10,925 nucleotides of DNA, taken from positions 1-10,925 of the forward strand of contig JAUSGI010000001.1 in NCBI GenBank assembly GCA_030649135.1, given 5' to 3'. Positions 1 to 10,925 of the stretch are shown in pieces. Within the stretch, counting starts at the first letter, position 1; each line of letters begins with the position of its first letter. This DNA comes from a bacterium. GTDB lineage: Bacteria; Patescibacteriota; Minisyncoccia; Phycocordibacterales; Zambryskibacteraceae. The position numbers and the translations under genes were made by a program. Under the pieces are notes generated by a model. The model was not told the DNA's origin and made no database searches. It was given only the letters and a program-made list of their open reading frames with translations.

Positions 1-84
1 TGTGAGCCTACGGTAAACTCAATGACAAGGACTAAGTCGTAACAAGGCACGGGTAGCGGAAGCTGCTCGTGGAGTAATTCAATT
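1..84 (+). rRNA. rrs: 16S rRNA, 3'-terminal fragment (the gene continues upstream of the window)
   Basis: Contains AAGTCGTAACAAGG, the complement of the universal 1492R site. Next comes CACGGGTAGC-GGAA-GCTGCTCGTG, a 10-bp helix with a GGAA tetraloop homologous to 16S helix 45, maintained by compensatory base changes. TGGA then follows, as in the canonical ...TGGATCACCTCCTTA terminus. Seen directly; the homology is by eye against the E. coli 3' end from memory. Confidence 0.75.
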
Positions 85-246: not shown

Positions 247-253
247 GTTGAAG

Positions 254-326
254 TGCGCGCACTAGGGGTCGAACCTAGGACCTTTCGAGTATCAGTCGAA
301 TGCTCTACCAACTGAGCTATGCGCGC
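254..326 (-). tRNA. tRNA-Ile (anticodon GAT), 73 nt, CCA not encoded
   Basis: The reverse complement folds into a canonical cloverleaf. The acceptor is GCGCGCA/TGCGCGC and the D arm is GCTC-AGTTGGTA-GAGC. The anticodon stem is TTCGA/TCGAA with loop CTGATAC (U33, GAU, A37). The T arm is CTAGG-TTCGACC-CCTAG, and the discriminator is A. Confidence 0.9.
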
Positions 327-352: not shown

Positions 353-380
353 TTGCTCTTTCACAATACGTTGGTATAAT
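353..380 (+). promoter_or_regulatory. Sigma70-type promoter with extended -10: TTGCTC -35, 16-nt spacer, TGgTATAAT
   Basis: TTGCTC is at 353-358 and TGGTATAAT at 372-380. The predicted TSS at about 387-388 falls 1-2 nt before ATG 389, giving a leaderless configuration. Confidence 0.5.
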
Positions 381-388
381 GTCCTTTA

Positions 389-646
389 ATGCCGAAAAAT
401 AAGATTATCATCGCCCTAGGATTACTGATAGCGCTTCTGCCGCTTCTCGGGTTTCCTCGTCTCTGGGAGTCATTTTTCCAAGTAGCGACCGGGCTATCCA
501 TAGTACTTATTCTTGTCTGGGCTAGTATAGATAAACGTCTTTCTCTTAAGGCTAAAGCTCAAAGGCGCCAAATTCATAAACGCCGACAAGCAGAGATAGA
601 AGCCAGCAGGGCGACAGAATCCATCGTTCAGGAAGAAATACTCTGA
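389..646 (+). CDS. Small membrane protein, 85 aa, with two predicted TM helices and a basic C-terminal tail
   Basis: Supplied ORF. Hydrophobic stretches IIIALGLLIALLPLLGF and VATGLSIVLILVWA are followed by a Lys/Arg-rich tail. The stop TGA at 644-646 lies 1 nt before the next ATG, so the genes are coupled. A promoter sits immediately upstream. Confidence 0.45.
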   Translation: MPKNKIIIALGLLIALLPLLGFPRLWESFFQVATGLSIVLILVWASIDKRLSLKAKAQRRQIHKRRQAEIEASRATESIVQEEIL

Positions 647-647
647 C

Positions 648-1814
648 ATGTCGTGGTTCAAGCGAAGTCTCGTATCGGTTACCGCGGCAAGTTTCGCCAT
701 TTTTCTTATCACTATTCTGTTGCCATCGTTTTTCGAATCTACTTATGATGCATCAACCTCTCTCACGAATCAGCCCCAAGTAGCATCTGTTCAAGCTGTG
801 GTAGTCAGTCACCAAGAGACCCCCGTACCTCTTAGGGCGCTTTACATGACTGCTTGCGTGGCCGGTACTCCGTCCTGGCGCGAGAATTTGAAAAAACTGG
901 TTGAGACAACCGAACTCAATGCCGTGGTGATAGATATCAAAGATTACACAGGAGTGGTCTCTTTTCCCAACGAATTTCCCAAGACGAATCTTGGCCACGG
1001 GTGTGTAGTTTCCGATATGTCTGAATTTATACAAACGCTTCATGATACTAAGATTTATGTCATTGGACGCATCTCCGTTTTCCAGGACCCTTCTTACACC
1101 AAACTTTTTCCCGCACTCGCAGTTAGAAAGAAAAGTGATGGTGAAGTCTGGAAGGATTATAAGGGTCTTTCTTTTATTGATGTCGGGGCGAAGCCTTATT
1201 GGGATTATATTGTGGCAATTTCGGAAGAGGCTTACGCACTCGGATTTGATGAGCTCAATTATGACTATGTTCGCTATCCTTCCGATGGCAATATAAAAGA
1301 CGCACTCTATACTTGGGCTGTCGGTACGACTACAAAGCCGGAGATGCTTGAAAGTTTTTTTGAATATCTGAAAGATAATTTGGAACATACGGGAGCCAAA
1401 CTTTCTGTCGACCTTTTCGGCATGACCACTACCGTGGAGAATGATATGAATATTGGACAAGTGCTTGAACTGGCCTTGCCTTATTTTGATTATGTCAGCC
1501 CGATGGTTTATCCTTCGCACTATCCTCCCACGTGGAACGGTTTTGCCAAACCTGCCGAGCACCCGTATGAAGTAGTGAAATTTGCTATGGCAAGAGGCAT
1601 GGAACGCGAACGAACTTTAAATACAGCAAACGGCCTAGCCACATCCACTCCGTCCAAACTTCGGCCTTGGTTACAGGACTTCAATCTCGGTGCGACTTAT
1701 GGACCGGACAAAGTCCGTGCCCAAATCCAAGCAACTTATGATGTCGGTCTCTCAAGTTGGATGATTTGGAACGCGGGGAATAAATATACCACTTCCGCGC
1801 TTTTACCGGAGTAG
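648..1814 (+). CDS. Membrane-anchored TIM-barrel putative glycoside hydrolase (DUF4015/GHL-like family), 388 aa
   Basis: Supplied ORF. An N-terminal signal-anchor helix is present. Motifs NAVVIDIKDYTG and ELNYDYVRYPSDG are typical of the putative-glycosyl-hydrolase DUF4015/GHL families (family assignment from memory, moderate). Codon usage matches the rest of the window. Confidence 0.8.
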   Translation: MSWFKRSLVSVTAASFAIFLITILLPSFFESTYDASTSLTNQPQVASVQAVVVSHQETPVPLRALYMTACVAGTPSWRENLKKLVETTELNAVVIDIKDYTGVVSFPNEFPKTNLGHGCVVSDMSEFIQTLHDTKIYVIGRISVFQDPSYTKLFPALAVRKKSDGEVWKDYKGLSFIDVGAKPYWDYIVAISEEAYALGFDELNYDYVRYPSDGNIKDALYTWAVGTTTKPEMLESFFEYLKDNLEHTGAKLSVDLFGMTTTVENDMNIGQVLELALPYFDYVSPMVYPSHYPPTWNGFAKPAEHPYEVVKFAMARGMERERTLNTANGLATSTPSKLRPWLQDFNLGATYGPDKVRAQIQATYDVGLSSWMIWNAGNKYTTSALLPE

Positions 1815-1815
1815 C

Positions 1816-1844
1816 TTGACAATACCTTCTCTAAGGTGTATAAT
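1816..1844 (+). promoter_or_regulatory. Perfect consensus sigma70 promoter: TTGACA, 17-nt spacer, TATAAT, with TG immediately 5' of the -10
   Basis: TTGACA is at 1816-1821 and TATAAT at 1839-1844. The predicted TSS is at about 1851. Confidence 0.7.
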
Positions 1845-1891
1845 ACTAAGAGACGTAGAATTGGCCGAATTTCCGCTAAGGAGAGCTTAAA

Positions 1892-2236
1892 ATGCTCGCT
1901 TCCACGAAACCCAACAAGGTAAAGCTGTACCGGCATCCCGGACAGGTAACCTCGAGTCTGACTGTGCGCCGAATTCTCTTCGACTTCGAGAAGATGGGGG
2001 TTAAGTGTCTGAGTATCGAGGACGACATCGTGAAGGGGTGGTGCCGCAATCCGGCGACCTACCCGCAGGAATTCCGCGACAAGGTCCTCTACCTCGGGGG
2101 GAAGACCGAGGTTCGAGGAGGCTGCGAGTCGGTACCCTGCCTGACGTGGTTTCCAGGCCTGGTGTCCGAGAAGTGGCTGCCGCTCGATACCAAGATCGGA
2201 GACACGTTCGTTGTCGCTCGACTGGCATCGTTCTAG
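1892..2236 (+). CDS. Hypothetical 114-aa protein encoded in a GC-rich, compositionally foreign island; Cys-containing, no recognisable family
   Basis: A strong SD, AAGGAGAG at 1878-1885, lies 8 nt before ATG 1892, which is the first in-frame start after a TAA. Codon third positions are about 77% G/C while the region is about 58% GC. That period-3 bias argues for coding rather than ncRNA. The stop TAG at 2234-2236 comes just before the terminator. Confidence 0.7.
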   Translation: MLASTKPNKVKLYRHPGQVTSSLTVRRILFDFEKMGVKCLSIEDDIVKGWCRNPATYPQEFRDKVLYLGGKTEVRGGCESVPCLTWFPGLVSEKWLPLDTKIGDTFVVARLASF

Positions 2237-2246
2237 TTCTGCAGTT

Positions 2247-2290
2247 CGCCCGGCACCCACGCAAGTGAGTGCCGGGCGGTTTTGTTTTTT
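2247..2290 (+). terminator. Strong rho-independent terminator
   Basis: CGCCCGGCAC (2247-2256) pairs perfectly with GTGCCGGGCG (2269-2278) as a 10-bp stem with a 12-nt loop. GTTTTGTTTTTT follows. Confidence 0.85.
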
Positions 2291-2292
2291 GT

Positions 2293-2300
2293 TGTATAAT
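2293..2300 (+). promoter_or_regulatory. TGTATAAT extended -10-like element 7 nt upstream of the ATPase ATG; a leaderless configuration, and a direct repeat of 1837-1844
   Basis: The 8-mer is identical to the one in the consensus promoter at 1837-1844. There is no good -35 upstream, because that region is the terminator stem. Confidence 0.4.
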
Positions 2301-2307
2301 TAGCGCG

Positions 2308-3978
2308 ATGGCAGATTCGCCAAAAGACCAAGTAATATATTTTGCCGAGACAGACTCGCGTAATAACCGCAAGAAGTTTGGAATTAAGACCGAAGATCGC
2401 TCCAAACATGTCTATGTCATAGGTAAGACCGGCATGGGCAAGTCCACGCTTCTTGAGAACATGGCTATTCAGGATATTCAAAATGGCAACGGTATTGCTT
2501 TCATCGACCCTCATGGCGGTACGGCAGAAAAACTTTTGGATTTTGTGCCCAAAGAGCGCATCAAGGATGTGTTGTATTTCGCTCCTTTTGATACTGAATA
2601 TCCGGTTGCCTTTAACGTCATGGAAGATGTCGGCGCCAACAAACGGCATCTAGTAGTCAGCGGTCTTATGAGCGCCTTCATGAAGCTCTTCGGGGAAGAG
2701 AGTTTTTCCGACAGAATGCAGTACATTCTCCAGAATACCATTCTTGCTCTTCTTGAGTATCCCGGTTCGACCATGCTCGGTATCAATAAAATGCTCGTTG
2801 ATAAGGAATATCGAAAAAATGTAATAGCGAATATTACTGATCCGTCGGTTAAGGCCTATTGGACACAGGAATATGCCGGTTACACAGAACGTTTCGCCGC
2901 AGAAGCTATACCCGCCATTCAGAACAAGATAGGCCAGTTCACATCAAATCCACTCATCAGAAATATCATTGGTCAAGAGAAATCCAGTTTCAATCTTCGA
3001 AAAATCATGGACGAGAAGAAGATTGTAATCGTCAATCTTTCCAAAGGCCGCGTAGGTGAAGACAATGCCCGCCTGCTTGGCTCGATGTTAATTACCAAAA
3101 TATATCTGGCGGCCATGTCACGCGCCGACGAGCGCGCCTCCTCGCTTGCCAAGCTCCCGCCATTTTTTCTGTACGTAGACGAATTCCAATCATTTGCCGA
3201 CAAGTCCTTCGCCGATATTTTGTCGGAAGCTCGCAAATATAAACTCAACCTGACCATGGCTCATATGTATATAGAACAGATGGAAGAAGAAGTGCGCGAT
3301 GCCGTCTTCGGCAACGTCGGCACCATGATAGTCTTCCGCGTGGGGGCTTACGACGCCGATGTATTGGAAAAGGAATTTGCCCCGGTTTTTATTGCAGAGG
3401 ATTTGGTCAACTTGGGATTGCGCCAAATCTACCTCAAACTGATGATAGACTCGGTGGCATCGCCGCCATTCTCCGCCACCACCATGCCGCCAATGCAGTC
3501 TTCAGAGGTTTCCCACACGGAGGAAATTATAGAATATTCTCGCAAGACCTTCGCCCAGCCAAGAAGTGAGGTTGAGAAACGTATCACCGACTGGCATGAA
3601 GCAGGCCGAGTGGCGGTAAAGACCGCTCCGCCCAGAGTGTTTAGCGCGCCTCCGATAGTTAAACCACAGGAGAAAAGACCGATAGAGAAAGTAATCTTAC
3701 CTGTCATGCCCGCGCATGCAGGGCAGGTAGGGAGTAAAATAGAACCCAAACCGCTTCCAAGCATTTCTCTCGAAACTCTGAAAAAGAGCACTGATAATCA
3801 GCGCAAGCCGGACGCCAAGCATGTCGCTGACCTGCGAGATGCGCTCAGAGCCATGACAGGGAATCAGCCGAAGCTAGAGACACCACCCCAGCCTCAAGTA
3901 CAACCGGTACACCCCCAGCCGACCATAAAGAAGGAACCTAGTCAGGAAGAGCTCAAAAAAATCCTCGATGTCCAATAA
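2308..3978 (+). CDS. TraG/VirD4/TrwB-like (type IV coupling-protein-like) P-loop ATPase with no N-terminal TM segment and a Pro/Gln-rich disordered C-terminal tail
   Basis: Walker A is VIGKTGMGKST, followed by IAFIDPHGG. Walker B is FFLYVDEFQSF, then NVGTMIVFRVG. This pattern is typical of the VirD4/TraG/DUF87 ATPase family. The start is taken as ATG 2308 (MADSPKDQ...) rather than the track's GTG 2269, which lies inside the terminator hairpin. The stop TAA at 3976-3978 overlaps the next gene. Confidence 0.8.
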   Translation: MADSPKDQVIYFAETDSRNNRKKFGIKTEDRSKHVYVIGKTGMGKSTLLENMAIQDIQNGNGIAFIDPHGGTAEKLLDFVPKERIKDVLYFAPFDTEYPVAFNVMEDVGANKRHLVVSGLMSAFMKLFGEESFSDRMQYILQNTILALLEYPGSTMLGINKMLVDKEYRKNVIANITDPSVKAYWTQEYAGYTERFAAEAIPAIQNKIGQFTSNPLIRNIIGQEKSSFNLRKIMDEKKIVIVNLSKGRVGEDNARLLGSMLITKIYLAAMSRADERASSLAKLPPFFLYVDEFQSFADKSFADILSEARKYKLNLTMAHMYIEQMEEEVRDAVFGNVGTMIVFRVGAYDADVLEKEFAPVFIAEDLVNLGLRQIYLKLMIDSVASPPFSATTMPPMQSSEVSHTEEIIEYSRKTFAQPRSEVEKRITDWHEAGRVAVKTAPPRVFSAPPIVKPQEKRPIEKVILPVMPAHAGQVGSKIEPKPLPSISLETLKKSTDNQRKPDAKHVADLRDALRAMTGNQPKLETPPQPQVQPVHPQPTIKKEPSQEELKKILDVQ

Positions 3979-5062
3979 ACGCATTCTAATATTTTCCCTC
4001 GCATATTATCCGGTGGAAGGCGGTGCAGAGATTGCAGTTAAAGAAATCACCAATCGTATTTCCGACATTGAATTTGACATGATTACTTTGCGTTTCGATC
4101 AGGCACACTTGCCTAAAGAGAAAATAGGGAATTGCACGGTATATCGTATAAACACCTCTAAGAATCTATACCCGTTTAGAGCTTTTTTATTTGCCCGGAA
4201 GTTGCATAAAAACCGGCCATACGATGCTACATGGGCCATTATGGCCAATTGGGCTGGATTTGCTGCGCTCTTTTTCAAGTTTTATTTTCCAAGTGTACCC
4301 TATGCACTCAACCTACAAGAAGGTGATCCCATCTCCTATATCAAACATAAGGTCTGGTTTGTCTACCCCTTGTTCAAAAGGATTTTTCTCTATGCGGACA
4401 TTATCCAGGCCATTTCAAAATATTTAGCAGACTGGGCACGAGAGATGGGTTACGAGGGACGATTAGAAGTGATACCCAACGGAGTAAATGTAAAAAGATT
4501 TGAAAACGAGAATCCAAAAGCTAAAAACGAGACAATCACTCTTATAACCACCTCCCGCCTTGTAGAGAAGAATGCTGTCGGAGATATCATAGATGCTTTA
4601 AAATTCCTGCCAGTGAATATGAAATTAAAGATTCTTGGCACGGGACCACTAGAATCGGATTTGAAGCAAAAAACTAAAGATCAGAGTTTGGAGAGTAGGG
4701 TAGAATTTTTAGGAAATATTCTTAATGATAATCTGCCAAAATATTTACACGAAGCCGATATTTTTATCAGACCATCACTTTCGGAAGGTATGGGCATCTC
4801 GTTTATTGAAGCTATGGCTGCCGGTTTGCCGGTCATTGCCACACCAGTTGGCGGTATTCCGGATTTTCTGAAAGATAGAGAGACTGGACTCTTCTGCAGA
4901 GTTAATGACCCAAAAAGTATTGCAGATAAAGTGATGGAGTATGTAAATAATCCCAAACTGGCATCTCAAATTGTAAAAAATGCAAAAGAAATGGTCGTTA
5001 GGAAATACGACTGGGACTTGATTGCGGAGGAGATGAAAAGGCAAGTTTTTGATAAAGTGTAG
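3968..5062 (+). CDS. GT4-family (GT-B fold) glycosyltransferase
   Basis: EGMGISFIEAMAAGLPVIATPVGGIPDF is an E-X7-E motif in a GT4 C-terminal domain. The start overlaps the upstream stop by 11 nt, consistent with translational coupling. Confidence 0.9.
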   Translation: MSNKRILIFSLAYYPVEGGAEIAVKEITNRISDIEFDMITLRFDQAHLPKEKIGNCTVYRINTSKNLYPFRAFLFARKLHKNRPYDATWAIMANWAGFAALFFKFYFPSVPYALNLQEGDPISYIKHKVWFVYPLFKRIFLYADIIQAISKYLADWAREMGYEGRLEVIPNGVNVKRFENENPKAKNETITLITTSRLVEKNAVGDIIDALKFLPVNMKLKILGTGPLESDLKQKTKDQSLESRVEFLGNILNDNLPKYLHEADIFIRPSLSEGMGISFIEAMAAGLPVIATPVGGIPDFLKDRETGLFCRVNDPKSIADKVMEYVNNPKLASQIVKNAKEMVVRKYDWDLIAEEMKRQVFDKV

Positions 5063-5064
5063 AT

Positions 5065-6069
5065 ATGCGCATTCTTATAGTCACAGGTATATATCCTCCT
5101 GAAATAGGGGGCCCGGCTGAATATGCCCTAAACCTCAAAGATACTTGGGTAAGGCAGGGCCATAAGGTAAAGGTCAAGATTTTTGGCCGATTTAGAAAAA
5201 TTCCATGGGGTATAAGGCATGTAATATTTCTTGTTTATATTTTGCCATCAGTAATGTGGTCAGACTGTATTTTTACACTCGATGCCTTTACTGCGGGAGT
5301 GTCTACTGTGGCCTCAAAGTTATTCAATAAGAAAAACATCTTCCGTACGGGAGGGGACGCGCTCTGGGAGCTATATGTAGAAAGAACGAACGATTTGGTT
5401 TTGTTACGGGATTTTTATAGAACGAGGCTTAAAAAATTGTCTGTGAAAGAGAAAGTAACATTCCATCTGATGAAATGGGCCCTACGAAATTTGTCCGCTA
5501 TTATCTGGAGTACCGAATGGCAGAAGAATATTTTCATGGAGCCGTATCATCTTTCTCGGCAAAACCATTTCATCGTGGAGAATTACTATGGGCCGAAGCT
5601 GGAATCGCGAAGGCCTGCAACCAAGAATTTTATCGCTGGGACTCGAAAGCTGAAATGGAAAAATATCGTGTTAGTTCAAAAAGTTTTTGAGCATAAGGAT
5701 ACCAAAGAGTCCGGAGCTATTTTGGATACTAGCATTGTCCATCACGACGAGTTTCTCAATAAGTTAAGCCAATCTTACGCTGTTATCATCGCCTCGCTAG
5801 GTGATATTAGCCCGAATACGATATTGGATGCCATAAGGTGTGGCAAACCCTTCATTCTGACTAGAGAAAATGGTCTCTACAGCCGTATTAAGGATATCGG
5901 TCTCTTTGTTGATCCCCAAGACGAGGAAGATATCAAAAGCAAGGTCCTTTGGCTCGTGCAAGAGGGCAATTATGCGAGCCAAAAGGCTAAGATTGATAGT
6001 TTCAGCTTCAGTCATACCTGGGAAGAAATTGCCGGAGAGTACATAACAGCTTTTAACTCAATCAAATGA
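5065..6069 (+). CDS. Divergent GT-B fold glycosyltransferase (GT4-like N-terminal domain)
   Basis: MRILIVTGIYPPEIGGPAEY is a typical GT4 N-terminal motif. The C-terminal half is Rossmann-like without a clean EX7E. The ATG lies 2 nt after the upstream TAG. Confidence 0.75.
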   Translation: MRILIVTGIYPPEIGGPAEYALNLKDTWVRQGHKVKVKIFGRFRKIPWGIRHVIFLVYILPSVMWSDCIFTLDAFTAGVSTVASKLFNKKNIFRTGGDALWELYVERTNDLVLLRDFYRTRLKKLSVKEKVTFHLMKWALRNLSAIIWSTEWQKNIFMEPYHLSRQNHFIVENYYGPKLESRRPATKNFIAGTRKLKWKNIVLVQKVFEHKDTKESGAILDTSIVHHDEFLNKLSQSYAVIIASLGDISPNTILDAIRCGKPFILTRENGLYSRIKDIGLFVDPQDEEDIKSKVLWLVQEGNYASQKAKIDSFSFSHTWEEIAGEYITAFNSIK

Positions 6070-7196
6070 AAGTTTTAATGATCTCAAGTGATAGGAATAT
6101 TTTGGTTCCCGGGAGCGCTGTTTCGGAGCGGATGAAAGAGTATGGAAATTTAGTCGAAGAGCTTCATATTGTGCTTATGTCAGATGCACGGCACAAATTG
6201 AAGGATAAGCAGTTGTCGAATAATGTATGGGTCTACACAACGAATTCCCCGATGACTTTTATGCGTCCGTTCAATGCCGCTCGGCTTGGCAGAAAAGTGG
6301 TATTTGATAGTCAGTTTGTGCGGGGGCGATCCATTATCACCACCCAAGATCCTTTCGAGTGTGGATGGGCTGGATTAAGGATAAAGAAGAGATGGAAGAT
6401 ACCATTGGAAGTACAACTGCATACTGACCCGTTTTCACCGTATTTTTCTGGTTTATTAAATCAGATCCGAAAAATTATTGCGAGAAGAGTTTTGCGTAAT
6501 GCCAATAGTGTACGGGTGGTTACTCTCGGTCTTAAAACTAAAGTTTCCGCTTTTACTTCTGCCGACATTAGTGTCTTGCCGATATATGTTGACCGTAAGC
6601 ACATTGAGGAGGCGAAAATTTCCTTTGACCTGCATACGCGTTATCCTTGGCATTTTATTCTGCTTGCCGTCTCGCGTCTTGCACCAGAGAAGAATCTTAG
6701 TCTGGCTCTTCGGGTGCTTGTACTTGTGCGAGAAAGATTCCCGGATACGGGACTGGTGATAGTCGGCTCTGGTCCGGAAGAAGGGCGGCTTAAGGCACTT
6801 ACTCAAAAGCTTAAACTTGTAGGAGCGGTTGAGTTTGTGGGTTGGCAGGACGATTTAACTTCCTTTTATAAAACTGCCAATGTCTTTATTCAAACCTCTA
6901 TCTTTGAGGGTTATGGCCTGTCATTAGTGGAGGCTGGTCTGTCCGACTTACCGGTCGTTACCACACCGGTTGGCATTGCACAAGAGTTGGAGAATGGTAA
7001 GGACGCATATATATATCCTGCAAATAATATCGAGGCTTTCGCAAATGGCATTGTAGACTTAATCGAGAATAATCAAAAGCGTGAAAACTTGCGTTTAAAC
7101 ATGAAGCAAACTCTCGAGGTAATGCTTATATCTAAAGGAGAATATCTAAAGGAGCTAAAGTCCAGTTGGGAGAAAACTGCTTTAAAGGTTAATTAG
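6066..7196 (+). CDS. GT4-family (GT-B fold) glycosyltransferase
   Basis: The segment LAVSRLAPEKN...EGYGLSLVEAGLSDLPVVTTPVG carries an EX7E motif. There is an ATGA start/stop overlap with the upstream gene. Confidence 0.9.
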   Translation: MKVLMISSDRNILVPGSAVSERMKEYGNLVEELHIVLMSDARHKLKDKQLSNNVWVYTTNSPMTFMRPFNAARLGRKVVFDSQFVRGRSIITTQDPFECGWAGLRIKKRWKIPLEVQLHTDPFSPYFSGLLNQIRKIIARRVLRNANSVRVVTLGLKTKVSAFTSADISVLPIYVDRKHIEEAKISFDLHTRYPWHFILLAVSRLAPEKNLSLALRVLVLVRERFPDTGLVIVGSGPEEGRLKALTQKLKLVGAVEFVGWQDDLTSFYKTANVFIQTSIFEGYGLSLVEAGLSDLPVVTTPVGIAQELENGKDAYIYPANNIEAFANGIVDLIENNQKRENLRLNMKQTLEVMLISKGEYLKELKSSWEKTALKVN

Positions 7197-7443
7197 AACA
7201 GGGAAGCTGTGGATAAGTATAAGATATTAGAAATTAAATCAACATAGCCATAATAGTCATAAGAATGGGTCAATGCACATTATGAATATAATTATAAAGG
7301 TTTTTCTTAATAAAATTAAAATAGTTTATTAAGGTTTAATAATGTTTGTAAATCTTTCTACTCGGACTTAAAAAGCATAAGTTCACTACTTTTTGAGTCT
7401 TCATTCTATCCTTATTTTATAAGGCATTTTACCAATTTTTACT

Positions 7444-7452
7444 TGGTATAAT
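7444..7452 (+). promoter_or_regulatory. Extended -10 element TGGTATAAT (identical 9-mer to the one at 372-380), with a weak -35
   Basis: It lies at the end of a 275-bp region of about 75% AT. The predicted TSS at about 7459 falls just after an in-frame TAG (7456-7458) and 12 nt before the TTG start. Confidence 0.45.
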
Positions 7453-7470
7453 CATTAGACAACAAATAAT

Positions 7471-10400
7471 TTGAAAGCCCAAAGATTGCTAGCAACTGGA
7501 TTGAGCGGTTTTATAATCGGAATTTTGGTTCTCAGTTTTTTAGGGGTATCTTTAAATAAGGTTTTTGCGGCGGGACCACCCTCAATTTTGAGCTATCAAG
7601 GTCGCCTTACTAATGCTTCAGGAAGTCTTCTTGGTGGTTCATCCGGAACTACTTTCTATTTCAAATTTTCAATATGGAGTGCTGCTAGTGGCGGGGCAAA
7701 GCTCTGGCCAGCATCCGACCCGACATCTTATGGCATTACGGTCAGAGAAGGCGTATTCAATGTAAATATTGGCGACACTACGAATGGTTATCCAGATACG
7801 CTTAATTATGATTTCTCGACGAGCACGAATGTATTTTTAAAGGTTGAAGTTTCTGATGATGATGTTGATTTTGAAACTCTCACTCCGCGACAGCAAATCA
7901 ATTCTGTCGCTTTTGCTCAAGTGGCGGGGGCGGTAGTTAGTGCATCTTCCACCATCGCCAATCTCACTGGTACTAACGCCACTACTACCAATGCTACTTC
8001 CACAAATTTCTTTAGTACTACAGCATCTTCAACAAATCTTTTTTCTGCCGCCATAACTTCAGGCTCTGCTATCTTTGCGAATCTTTTGGTAACCAGCTCA
8101 TCAACGCTCCAAAATTTCACTTTCACAAATGCTACAGGAACTTCCGCTACTACGACCAATCTCTTCTCCACCACTGCATCATCTTCCAACTTATTCACGG
8201 CATTATTCAACGGCGCTGGGTTAGCCACTTGCCAATCGAACAACGTCCTCACCTGGTCTGGTGGTATTTTCGGTTGCGAAACGGACGACAACACCTTCGC
8301 ATGGACTCCCATCTCTTACGGTACTCAAAACGTAGTTGCGACATCGACCGGCCTCTGGCTCAAAGGCTCACCTCTAGGCTTAGTTGCTTCTTCTACTTTC
8401 GCCACTTACTCCACCTCGACCAATGCCACCTCGACTAACTTTTTCTCTACTATCGCTTCGTCTACCAGTCTTTTCACATCAGCTTTGACCGTGAATGGCT
8501 TCGCCTTCACGGTCAATGGCGCTCCCACTTTGAACGACTGGTTCGACCAGTCCCTTAAGATCTCGGACGGGCCCGCTTTTTCCACTATCGATACTGGCCA
8601 TGGGGGTAATGAGCTCTATGCTATGGACCAAAACGTTCGGATCTCCGACGACGTAATCTTCGACGAACTCTTGCTAACCGGTTCTTCCACTTTGAGAAAT
8701 TTCACCTTCTTAAACGCCACCGGCACTTCCGCTACTACCACTAACTTCTTCGCCACGAATGCAAGTTCGACAAATCTCTTTACTACTCGACTTGGCATTG
8801 GCACTTCAAACCCCAGCAGTGCTCTAGAAGTTAATGGTGATATTCGTATCACCGCGAATTCCGGAGGGCGTCTCTACTTTAGTGATAGTTCCACACAAAA
8901 TAGTGCAATCGTGTCGGGAAGTGGTATTACAAGTTGGAGCGACTTGAATTTTCAAACCGGCGGAATCATGAACTTCCAAACCGGTAATGGTCTCGGCACC
9001 GCTACCACTACTCATATGGTTTTGGCTAATAACGGTAATATCGGGATTGGTACCACAACCCCAGGCACCCCGCTTGCTGTCACCGGTGCCGGAGTATTTA
9101 CTGGGTTAGTGACGGCACCCTTTTTCAATGCCACTTCTACAACCGATGTTTCTAATTTCCAACAAGTTCTCGTCCTTGCTTCCTCCACTCTTCAAAACTT
9201 TACTTTCTTAAACGCCACCGGCACTTCTGCTACTACCACTAGCTTCTTTGCTACTGTTTTAAATGCTACTACTGCTTCCACCACTAATCTTTTAGTAACC
9301 AGCTCATCAACGCTCCAAAATTTCACTTTCACAAATGCTACAGGAACTTCCGCCACCACCACCAATCTTTTCTCCACCACCGCATCATCTTCCAACTTAT
9401 TCACAGCATTATTCAACGGTGCCGGTCTTGCCACCTGCCAAACCAACAACGTCCTCACCTGGTCTGGTGGTATTTTCGGTTGCGAAACGGACGACAACAC
9501 CTTCGCATGGACTCCCACCTCTTACGGTACTCAAAACGTAGTTGCGACATCGACCGGTTTATGGCTCAAAGGTTCGCCTCTAGGCTTAATTGCCTCTTCT
9601 ACTTTCGCCACTTACTCCACCTCGACCAATGCTACTTCTACTAATTTCTTTGCCACCACGGCTTCATCCACTAGTCTTTTCGCAGCGGTCTTATCATCAG
9701 GCTCCGCCACCCTCGGCGATCTTTTACTTAACAGCTCATCGACACTCCAAAACTTTACTTTCCTAAATGCTACTGGCACTAACGCTACCACTACCAATAT
9801 TTTCTCCACCACTGCTTCTTCTACTAATCTTTTCACCGCTCTTTTCAATGGCGCTGGTCTTGCTACCTGCCAGACCAACAACATGCTCACTTGGGCTGGA
9901 GGAACATTCGGTTGCGAGGTTGATAATGATACCTTCGAATGGACTCCCACCGCTTGGGGCAACTCTACTTCCACCACTCTCGGTTTCTCGCAAGGTTTCC
10001 TCTCTACCGCTTCTTCTACCATAGACTCCAACTTGATTATCACTGGTAACTCCACTACTACCAACGCCACCACTACCAATATTTTCTCCACCACCGCATC
10101 ATCAACCGGTCTTTTTGCAGCGGTTTTATCATCAGGCTCCGCCACCTTCGGCGATCTTTTAATAAATAGCTCATCGACACTCCAAAACTTTACTTTCTTA
10201 AATGCTACTGGCACTAACGCTACCACTACCAATATTTTCTCCACCACCGCATCCACCACTAACTTCTTTGGTGCTGACTTAACCCCATGTACTTCAAATA
10301 ACGTCTTGACTTGGACAGGGGGGAAGTTTGGCTGTGAAGCAGATGACACCGGTAGTGCCACCTTCGGCAAAGACTGGAACATCTTTACCGTTGGCCGGCT

Positions 10401-10925
10401 TGCCCCGACTACCACAGTGGCTGTTTATGTGGGAGCAACCACCACAGCCTCCCTTACCAACAACTCGTACTTCCAAGTGAATGCGACTTCCACTACTGGA
10501 GACTTAATCGTGGCTTCTTCCTCCCAGGACTTCACTGGCAACTTCTTAAGATTCCTCAATGCCGCTGGTGCAACTCTCTTCTCTGTTGATAATACCGGTT
10601 CTTTGATTGCCGCTTCCACTACTTTCACCAACGCTACCTCGACCAATCTCTTCTCCACCACCGCATCTTCATCGAACCTCTACACCGCTCTCTTTAATGG
10701 CGCCGGTCTTGCCACTTGCCAAACCAACAACGTCCTCACCTGGGCCGGTGGAGAGTTCGGTTGCGAAGCGGATGATAGCGGCAGCGCTGGCTTCGGCAAA
10801 ACTTTTGAAATGTCCAACACCAACTTCCTCGCTCCCACCACCACGGTCTCGGTGATTATCGGCTCCACCACCACCCCGGACAAAAGCGCTTTATTCCAAG
10901 TGAACGCCACCGGCACCACAGGTAA
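7471..10925 (+). CDS. Giant secreted Thr/Ser/Asn-rich tandem-repeat surface protein, 3'-partial (at least 1,151 codons; continues beyond the window)
   Basis: I translated the frame by hand from TTG 7471 (TTG 7486 is an alternative start) to the window end and found no stop codon. The N-terminus, KAQRLLATGLSGFIIGILVLSFLGVSLNKVFA|AG, is a signal peptide. The body consists of repeated modules S-T-L-Q-N-F-T-F-x-N-A-T-G-T-x-A-T-T-T-N-x-F-S-T-T-A-S-S-x-N-L-F followed by A-L-F-N-G-A-G-L-A-T-C-Q-T-N-N-V-L-T-W-x-G-G-x-F-G-C-E-x-D-D. The ORF track omits it because no stop lies in the window and the start is TTG. Confidence 0.85.
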   Translation, partial: MKAQRLLATGLSGFIIGILVLSFLGVSLNKVFAAGPPSILSYQGRLTNASGSLLGGSSGTTFYFKFSIWSAASGGAKLWPASDPTSYGITVREGVFNVNIGDTTNGYPDTLNYDFSTSTNVFLKVEVSDDDVDFETLTPRQQINSVAFAQVAGAVVSASSTIANLTGTNATTTNATSTNFFSTTASSTNLFSAAITSGSAIFANLLVTSSSTLQNFTFTNATGTSATTTNLFSTTASSSNLFTALFNGAGLATCQSNNVLTWSGGIFGCETDDNTFAWTPISYGTQNVVATSTGLWLKGSPLGLVASSTFATYSTSTNATSTNFFSTIASSTSLFTSALTVNGFAFTVNGAPTLNDWFDQSLKISDGPAFSTIDTGHGGNELYAMDQNVRISDDVIFDELLLTGSSTLRNFTFLNATGTSATTTNFFATNASSTNLFTTRLGIGTSNPSSALEVNGDIRITANSGGRLYFSDSSTQNSAIVSGSGITSWSDLNFQTGGIMNFQTGNGLGTATTTHMVLANNGNIGIGTTTPGTPLAVTGAGVFTGLVTAPFFNATSTTDVSNFQQVLVLASSTLQNFTFLNATGTSATTTSFFATVLNATTASTTNLLVTSSSTLQNFTFTNATGTSATTTNLFSTTASSSNLFTALFNGAGLATCQTNNVLTWSGGIFGCETDDNTFAWTPTSYGTQNVVATSTGLWLKGSPLGLIASSTFATYSTSTNATSTNFFATTASSTSLFAAVLSSGSATLGDLLLNSSSTLQNFTFLNATGTNATTTNIFSTTASSTNLFTALFNGAGLATCQTNNMLTWAGGTFGCEVDNDTFEWTPTAWGNSTSTTLGFSQGFLSTASSTIDSNLIITGNSTTTNATTTNIFSTTASSTGLFAAVLSSGSATFGDLLINSSSTLQNFTFLNATGTNATTTNIFSTTASTTNFFGADLTPCTSNNVLTWTGGKFGCEADDTGSATFGKDWNIFTVGRLAPTTTVAVYVGATTTASLTNNSYFQVNATSTTGDLIVASSSQDFTGNFLRFLNAAGATLFSVDNTGSLIAASTTFTNATSTNLFSTTASSSNLYTALFNGAGLATCQTNNVLTWAGGEFGCEADDSGSAGFGKTFEMSNTNFLAPTTTVSVIIGSTTTPDKSALFQVNATGTTG
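8083..8476 (+). repeat. Intragenic direct repeat, copy A (about 390 nt), paired with 9289..9682
   Basis: The offset is exactly 1206 nt with no indels. Roughly nine in ten nucleotides are identical by eye across the compared core (8091-8230 vs 9297-9436). Nearly all differences are synonymous third positions, and the proteins differ at only about 3 of roughly 118 residues. Confidence 0.8.
9289..9682 (+). repeat. Intragenic direct repeat, copy B, paired with 8083..8476
   Basis: See copy A. Confidence 0.8.

Follow-up and report, generated by a model that had tools for sequence, protein, structure and literature searches.

The window analysed here is the complete 10,925-nt contig of a metagenome-assembled genome (MAG) of an uncultured Patescibacteria member (Paceibacteria/Zambryskibacteria-like). 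In a homologue search, proteins of Candidatus Zambryskibacteria, Paceibacteria, the Parcubacteria group and Minisyncoccota share 65-82% identity with its ATPase. The window carries the 3' end of a 16S rRNA gene and two operons (389-1814 and 2308-7196), and a -10 promoter box lies only 7-8 nt before the start codon of the first gene in each operon. These two boxes, which suggest mRNAs that begin at or close to the AUG, are the subject of this study. The features involved are as follows.

1-84, plus strand: 3' end of 16S rRNA (Rfam SSU_rRNA_bacteria alignment; helix 45 intact, anti-Shine-Dalgarno (anti-SD) sequence absent)
353-358, plus strand: -35-like TTGCTC of operon 1, 16 nt 5' of the -10 hexamer (sequence reading)
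372-380 (hexamer 375-380), plus strand: extended -10 TGGTATAAT, promoter of operon 1; predicted transcription start site (TSS) 387-389
389-646, plus strand: 85-aa membrane protein, first cistron of operon 1, with ATG 389 as the predicted 5'-terminal start codon (open reading frame (ORF) list, orthologues)
648-1814, plus strand: DUF4015 glycosyl-hydrolase-like gene (Pfam PF13200, E = 1.7e-90)
2246-2290, plus strand: intrinsic terminator, hairpin 2246-2279 and U-tract 2280-2290 (RNA fold)
2293-2300 (hexamer 2295-2300), plus strand: TGTATAAT, promoter of operon 2, TG abutting the hexamer; predicted TSS 2307-2308
2308-3978, plus strand: type IV secretion system (T4SS) coupling-protein-like ATPase, first cistron of operon 2 (Pfam DUF87, TrwB_AAD_bind)
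3968-5062, 5065-6069 and 6066-7196, plus strand: three glycosyltransferase genes (ORF list, Pfam)

Two start-proximal -10 boxes

The initial annotation had placed TGGTATAAT at 372-380, 8 nt from ATG 389. These coordinates are correct, and the intervening 8 nt are GTCCTTTA. It had also read 2293-2300 as an element of the same kind; here the position holds, with TGTATAAT lying 7 nt (TAGCGCG) before ATG 2308, but the element is not TGnTATAAT, as its TG abuts the hexamer (-14/-13). The TG at -15/-14 that defines an extended -10 is present at 372-380 and at a third site, 7444-7452, and absent at 2293-2300. TGnTATAAT matches the window twice (372-380 and 7444-7452) against 0.32 expected, while exact TATAAT occurs 10 times on both strands against 5.96 expected. 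By our own estimate, finding TATAAT at 7-8 nt from 2 of about 8 gene starts is improbable by chance, with a probability on the order of 1e-4.

Both start codons are sound and unambiguous. The 85-aa protein that starts at ATG 389 contains no other methionine, and its orthologues in 20 loci begin with MPKNKII. Homologues of the ATPase align from residue 1 (consensus MDDxxKVTYFAETD), and the sole in-frame start upstream of ATG 2308, GTG 2269, falls inside the 3' arm of the terminator hairpin. This terminator (2246-2290) has 14 pairs and a GCAA loop, with z = -3.3. Its U-tract ends at 2290, only 4 nt 5' of the hexamer at 2295; operon 2 therefore depends on this promoter, and there is no other place for one.

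Within the operons, all four internal junctions are tight (at most 10 nt apart or overlapping). The ATG of the DUF4015 gene lies 1 nt downstream of the preceding TGA, a coupled arrangement lacking a Shine-Dalgarno (SD) sequence. The ATPase and the three glycosyltransferase genes are likewise tightly coupled, through overlaps of 11 and 4 nt and one 2-nt gap, and none of them has an SD.

Loss of the anti-SD sequence

Nucleotides 1-84 of the window align to positions 1450-1533 of the Rfam bacterial small subunit (SSU) model. In this alignment helix 45 is intact, and the tail that follows it is GGAGUAAUUCAAUU in place of the expected GGAUCACCUCCUUU. CCTCC is absent within 220 nt of the 16S end in 22 of 22 16S genes, namely that of the window and those of the 21 relatives whose locus includes the 16S end. 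The alignment and this search bear out the missing anti-SD of the initial annotation. The post-helix-45 tail, GAnnAATTCAAnTTGAAA, is itself conserved across the relatives. A replacement pairing with the new tail (UAAUUCAA...) was considered and rejected: complementary k-mers such as TTGAA, GAATT and TGAAT are not enriched upstream of starts, where enrichment is confined to generic AT-rich k-mers. Many of the related MAG records (L003-L082) are titled 'uncultured Candidatus Saccharibacteria bacterium', and these titles look unreliable as taxonomy; the records share the gene order and the anti-SD-less 16S tail with Zambryskibacteria and Paceibacteria records.

Loss of the anti-SD has been described before in related bacteria. 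Tsurumaki et al. 2022 (PMC9297842) detected the anti-SD motif in only 48% of Parcubacteria; the group lacking it overlaps the lineages lacking uL1, and SD helices are presumably not formed. The same paper does not address what substitutes for SD initiation, and the word 'leaderless' is absent from its text. Era, a binder of GAUCACCUCC, has also been lost in most members of the candidate phyla radiation (CPR) (PMC10582724).

Conservation and clade-wide distribution of the layout

Exact-protein look-ups meant to extend the contig gave just Logan contigs of 2.9 and 4.8 kb from a single run, and the wider test was therefore made on relatives. One genome per species was scanned for these, which yielded 80 loci with ATPase orthologues; the order 16S, small membrane protein, DUF4015, ATPase and glycosyltransferases is widely kept among them. 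Most ATPase orthologues carry TTGTATAAT, TGTTATAAT or TATAAT 7-10 nt before the ATG, as anchored on the YFAET motif. Under a fixed box rule for family counts (TAnnnT, at least 5 of 6 matches, spacing 5-10), 47 of the 81 members of the ATPase family have a -10 at this distance, with modes at 7, 8 and 9. For the small membrane protein, orthologous genes carry TATAAT or TATACT, mostly at a distance of 6-8 nt from the ATG, and its families have the box in 9/10, 3/3 and 2/8 members. Both genes keep the layout in orthologues of 55-80% protein identity.

The 80 loci and the window were then pooled (81 loci, 1.16 Mb), giving 1078 genes at 88.5% coding. A scan for TATAAT 6-9 nt before ATG, an idea of the initial annotation, gave a sharp peak at exactly this distance when run on the relatives. 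Exact TATAAT precedes the first ATG of an ORF of at least 80 codons 27, 24, 17 and 18 times at spacings of 6, 7, 8 and 9 nt, compared with about 2 per position elsewhere; four control hexamers of the same composition are flat, without a peak. The peak persists when the ATPase family is removed (61, 45, 31 and 22 of 999 genes, 5-of-6 rule). A -10-like box occurs at 6-9 nt in 17.9% of genes versus 4.9% and 3.1% at control spacings, and for first-in-operon genes the share is 23.9% versus 6.8% in control windows, or about 17% above background. At least one such member is found in 96 of 416 protein clusters. The modal spacing in the clade is 6 nt, and the boxes of the window stand at 7 and 8 nt. 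The peak has about twice the strength at operon-leading genes that it has at internal ones, and it is specific to ATG, with no 6-9 nt peak at GTG, TTG or CTG starts; leaderless GTG or TTG starts were rejected on this ground. Leaderless initiation depends on AUG, and a peak for ATG only matches that dependence.

A different motif was noticed at some starts. TCTAAYGGGAT (11 nt) directly abuts the ATG (GGG-ATG) in L009, L013, L019, L023, L045 and L068, for example at L019 +11875 / -9180 and L023 +6444 / -6568. Often two inverted copies flank a divergent intergenic region of about 80-110 nt, each adjoining the ATG of its own strand, and in L009, L013 and L019 the motif replaces the TATAAT-7-ATG layout before the ATPase gene. 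The motif is not a sigma70 -10, matches no Rfam family and has no complement in a complete 16S.

SD usage in the clade and in contrast sets

GGAG or GAGG at -18 to -4 is found in 6.4% of clade genes versus 7.2% in the control window and is thus not enriched. With the same code, an Escherichia coli control (150 kb) gave SD k-mers in 33% versus 6.5%, and a -10 at 6-9 nt in 0 of 124 genes. The upstream regions of the clade are A-rich and G-poor (G 0.08-0.14). Among same-strand neighbours in the clade loci, 45% are at most 10 nt apart, and the commonest junction is a 4-nt ATGA overlap.

A contrast set was built from distant, N-extended ATPase homologues, which gave 80 metagenome loci without assigned taxonomy. 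Their ATPases (33-50% identity; L086-L165) have an N-terminal extension of about 300-450 residues that is absent from the window protein and its close relatives. According to SD use, the loci fall as follows.

SD-using loci (12 loci, 145 genes): SD k-mers 49% versus control 12%; box at 6-9 nt 4.1% versus 3.4-4.1%
Intermediate-SD loci (26 loci, 379 genes): SD k-mers 24% versus control 7.7%; box at 6-9 nt 12.7% versus 2.4-3.2%
No-SD loci (21 loci, 294 genes): SD k-mers 6.5% versus control 9.2%; box at 6-9 nt 13.6% versus 4.4-4.8%

The SD-using loci show no peak, their value being equal to control, and the loci with intermediate or no SD do show one. Per contrast locus, the relation between SD use and the leaderless-like fraction is just a trend (rho = -0.25, p = 0.056). 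The single 16S tail within this set (L162) is canonical.

Promoter character of the boxes

When the candidate sites are aligned on the hexamer, a T is found at -23 (0.62) and at -22 (0.57), which puts a -35 element at a 17-nt spacer. The G at -21 reaches just 0.26 versus 0.19 in intragenic controls, and the -35 signal consists mainly of the two T's. In the same alignment, T stands out at -3 and G at -2, and 28-31% of sites have TGn versus 5% of intragenic look-alikes. Promoter-like sites with TGn or -35 support are densest 5-10 nt from the start, at 8.2 per nt versus at most 2.7 elsewhere (about 3-fold). For the first-in-operon genes with a supported site within 200 nt (n = 173), the site is at 5-10 nt in 49 and at 11-20 nt in 25.

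Leadered promoters in the same window

The span that the initial annotation gave for its leaderless finding, 353-2310, includes an ORF (1892-2236) with a perfect leadered promoter and an AAGGAG. The elements of this region are given below.

1816-1844, plus strand: TTGACA-17-TATAAT promoter of an orphan ORF, the leadered contrast case (promoter scan 12/12)
1878-1883, plus strand: AAGGAG, SD-like hexamer, 8 nt 5' of ATG 1892 (sequence)
1892-2236, plus strand: 114-aa orphan ORF (tblastn: 0 loci in relatives)

The TATAAT of this promoter (1839-1844) lies 47 nt before the ORF, giving a leader of about 40-47 nt. The ORF has 58.6% GC versus 40-48% in its neighbours. A tblastn search finds it in none of the 80 relatives, where the ATPase directly follows DUF4015, and its one homologue in a database of 5.8 billion proteins comes from a Parcubacteria group MAG. 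The segment 1816-2290 (promoter, AAGGAG, ORF and terminator) is probably a self-contained, inserted foreign cassette, and looks like a recent insertion whose SD the host ribosome cannot pair with. As the ORF has no Pfam hit, a single database homologue and no copy in the relatives, its AAGGAG is uninformative on native initiation.

The third site precedes a giant gene at the end of the contig.

7444-7452, plus strand: extended -10 TGGTATAAT ahead of the giant gene; predicted TSS near 7459
7471-10925, plus strand: giant repeat-rich secreted protein, TTG start, runs off the contig (translation)

It is correct that TGGTATAAT recurs before this gene, as had been noted, but the site is not leaderless and was rejected as such, the box being 18 nt from a non-AUG start. 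No in-frame ATG is found near the 5' end of this gene; an in-frame TAG (7456-7458) is followed by TTG 7471 as the first start codon, which opens a textbook signal peptide (MKAQR...VFA/AG). The predicted mRNA would have a G-free leader of about 12 nt before the TTG.

Proposed mechanism and alternative explanations

In the proposed mechanism, the boxes at 375-380 and 2295-2300 would serve as sigma70-type -10 elements of the operons 389-1814 and 2308-7196, respectively. Transcription by RNA polymerase would begin 7-9 nt past each box, so that the first nucleotide is the A of the ATG or a position 1-2 nt 5' of it. The ribosome would then recognise the resulting mRNA, with essentially no 5' untranslated region (UTR), through the AUG at its 5' terminus, as in the known leaderless mode. 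For the later cistrons, ribosomes would terminate and reinitiate where stop and start codons overlap or abut, and the spacing of the tight junctions fits such coupling. Both this mode of ribosome loading and the reinitiation are inferred. With the anti-SD lost from the 16S rRNA of the clade and the genes devoid of SD, the combined scheme of leaderless initiation and reinitiation fits. We consider it most likely, with a probability of about 0.75, that the two operons give mRNAs starting at or within 1-2 nt of the AUG and translated as leaderless messages.

The core of the initial annotation, two sigma70-type -10 boxes at leaderless distance in a non-SD organism, is thus supported by the conservation of the layout, the clade-wide scan and the absence of SD, with the TSS positions predicted. 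Its wider statement, that SD-independent or leaderless initiation is the native mode, stands as regards the lack of SD and anti-SD; the leaderless layout, for its part, reaches about 1/5-1/4 of operon-leading genes. In this clade the layout is a substantial minority and not the sole mode, and tight coupling and A-rich, G-poor leaders cover the rest.

Several points weigh against a leaderless interpretation. The TSSs were predicted from E. coli-type rules, and a spacing of 7-8 nt may give a leader of 1-2 nt rather than none. At the operon 2 promoter, a -35 cannot be recognised and the canonical TGn is missing. A smaller 6-9 nt peak is also found at operon-internal genes, which would need internal promoters. 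The layout is not obligatory, as some orthologues have the box about 15-29 nt upstream (15-27 for the ATPase) or none. Finally, gene calling was crude, taking long ORFs without overlap and starting each at its first ATG. Every locus is also a syntenic neighbourhood of one and the same gene, which means that gene families recur in the sample; with cluster weighting the first-in-operon fraction falls to 16.7%.

Two other explanations deserve discussion. Firstly, the TATAAT-like element may act not as a promoter but at the mRNA level, as an AU-rich ribosome-binding site (RBS) or enhancer of the Bacteroidia or 'group B' kind within a longer leader whose transcription begins further upstream. Another start-proximal signal is plausible where SD and anti-SD are both missing, and the general A-richness and G-poverty upstream of starts, together with the weaker peak at operon-internal genes, are in keeping with this explanation. 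However, the element is the exact sigma70 -10 consensus, accompanied by TGn and by TTG at -35 distance, both needless for an RNA motif, and the same hexamer with a perfect -35, 47 nt before ORF 1892, can only be a promoter there. The terminator ending 4 nt 5' of 2295 leaves no room for another promoter, and operon-leading genes show a peak about twice as strong as that of internal genes. We therefore regard an RNA-level role as improbable.

Secondly, the boxes may be real promoters with an earlier TSS, or with an extra promoter upstream, so that a short unstructured leader is made and the 30S subunit loads in the ordinary SD-less way. The spacings of 7 and 8 nt do exceed the clade mode of 6 nt by 1-2 nt, and short leaders are common in the clade, as seen in the 25 genes with supported promoters at 11-20 nt and in the giant gene (18 nt, TTG start). 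On the other hand, 1-2 nt of leader would not suffice to fill the part of the 30S mRNA channel that lies upstream of the P site, and the ATG-only peak fits the AUG dependence of leaderless initiation, whereas leadered genes of the clade, such as the giant gene, can use TTG. There is only a slim chance, in our judgement, that this explanation holds in place of the leaderless one. A chance arrangement in AT-rich intergenic sequence, where the relaxed motif (4/6 matches) is common everywhere, or one due to mis-called starts, is effectively refuted, given that same-composition hexamers show no peak, control spacings in the same intergenic regions give 3-7%, orthologues of 55-80% identity keep the layout, and both start codons are unambiguous.

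Taking the leaderless reading of the two operons together with the clade data, a broader proposal can be made, which we offer tentatively and consider somewhat doubtful as a whole. A class-level Patescibacteria lineage would have abandoned SD pairing and would use three SD-free routes: a 5'-terminal AUG for at least 1/5 of operons, termination-reinitiation at downstream cistrons, and, for all else, short leaders free of G. As SD use falls across the radiation, the leaderless share would rise, and TCTAAYGGGAT would be a further, undescribed initiation signal in some members.

Comparison with known systems

The closest parallel is the 'group C' of GeneMarkS-2, with members in Actinobacteria and Deinococcus-Thermus, in which a Pribnow box lies 6-8 nt from the start in 25-50% of operons (PMC6028130). 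As in Mycobacterium tuberculosis, M. smegmatis and Deinococcus deserti of this group, a Pribnow box (TAnnnT) stands 6-8 nt before the operon-first AUG. The affected share in the clade is about 17-24% of operon-leading genes on crude start calls, compared with the 25-50% of operons in group C. In group C the remaining genes use SD and the 16S rRNA keeps its anti-SD, whereas here the anti-SD is gone and SD is not enriched.

Bacteroidia ('group B'; Flavobacterium johnsoniae) resemble the clade in lacking upstream SD and in having A-rich, G-poor upstream regions. They use a different promoter consensus and are not known to be rich in leaderless genes. Bacteroidia keep a canonical anti-SD that is sequestered on the 30S platform by bS21, bS18 and bS6 (PMC7797042, PMC9976891); here the anti-SD sequence itself has been lost from the 16S gene. 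In haloarchaea (GeneMarkS-2 'group D'), too, many transcripts begin at the start codon and the role of SD is small. Their promoter box is archaeal, about 22-26 nt upstream, and 60-80% of operons are affected (PMC6028130); they differ in having other transcription and initiation-factor machinery.

Within the Patescibacteria, the window and its 21 relatives agree with the anti-SD-lacking Parcubacteria of PMC9297842 in having 16S 3' ends without CCUCCU, and the promoter-to-ATG architecture described here is a candidate answer to the initiation mode left open in that paper. Our literature search found no paper linking leaderless transcription with CPR, Patescibacteria or Parcubacteria. Loss of the anti-SD and leaderless architecture are each known; their conjunction in Paceibacteria-like Patescibacteria appears to be unreported.

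Significance

How anti-SD-less Parcubacteria choose their start codons was left open, and the conserved layout provides a testable answer for a substantial share of operons. Software that predicts genes on the assumption of an RBS will place starts wrongly in these genomes. In addition, expression tools for the emerging genetics of Patescibacteria could be built on such promoters, with no RBS needed. The lineage also lends itself to learning what replaces SD pairing when it is lost outright, as compared with being masked in Bacteroidia.

Other features of the contig

The 16S rRNA end is not followed by a 23S rRNA gene. A terminator-like hairpin (about 228-246) lies 3' of it, and the next gene is on the opposite strand.

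253-326, minus strand: tRNA-Ile(GAT)

As the next gene after the 16S is this tRNA and not 23S, the rRNA operon is unlinked. An Rfam match to 'Plastid-ycf2 5'UTR' at 253-326 on the plus strand (34.5 bits, below the gathering score) was rejected, as it is the antisense of the tRNA-Ile gene; the same artefact occurs at tRNAs in L009 and L019.

The giant secreted protein is longer than 1151 aa, with a composition rich in Ser, Thr and Asn. Neither Pfam nor a tblastn search of the 80 relatives gave a match to it. Tandem Repeats Finder reported nothing of note in the giant gene, whose repeats are dispersed, about 110-300 nt long, and encode units such as STLQNFTFxNATGTSATTTN...CQTNNVLTWxGGxFGCExDD. 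A spacer of 274 nt (7197-7470, 24.8% GC) separates the gene from the glycosyltransferase operon, and within it overlapping TATAAT boxes are present on both strands at 7287-7296.

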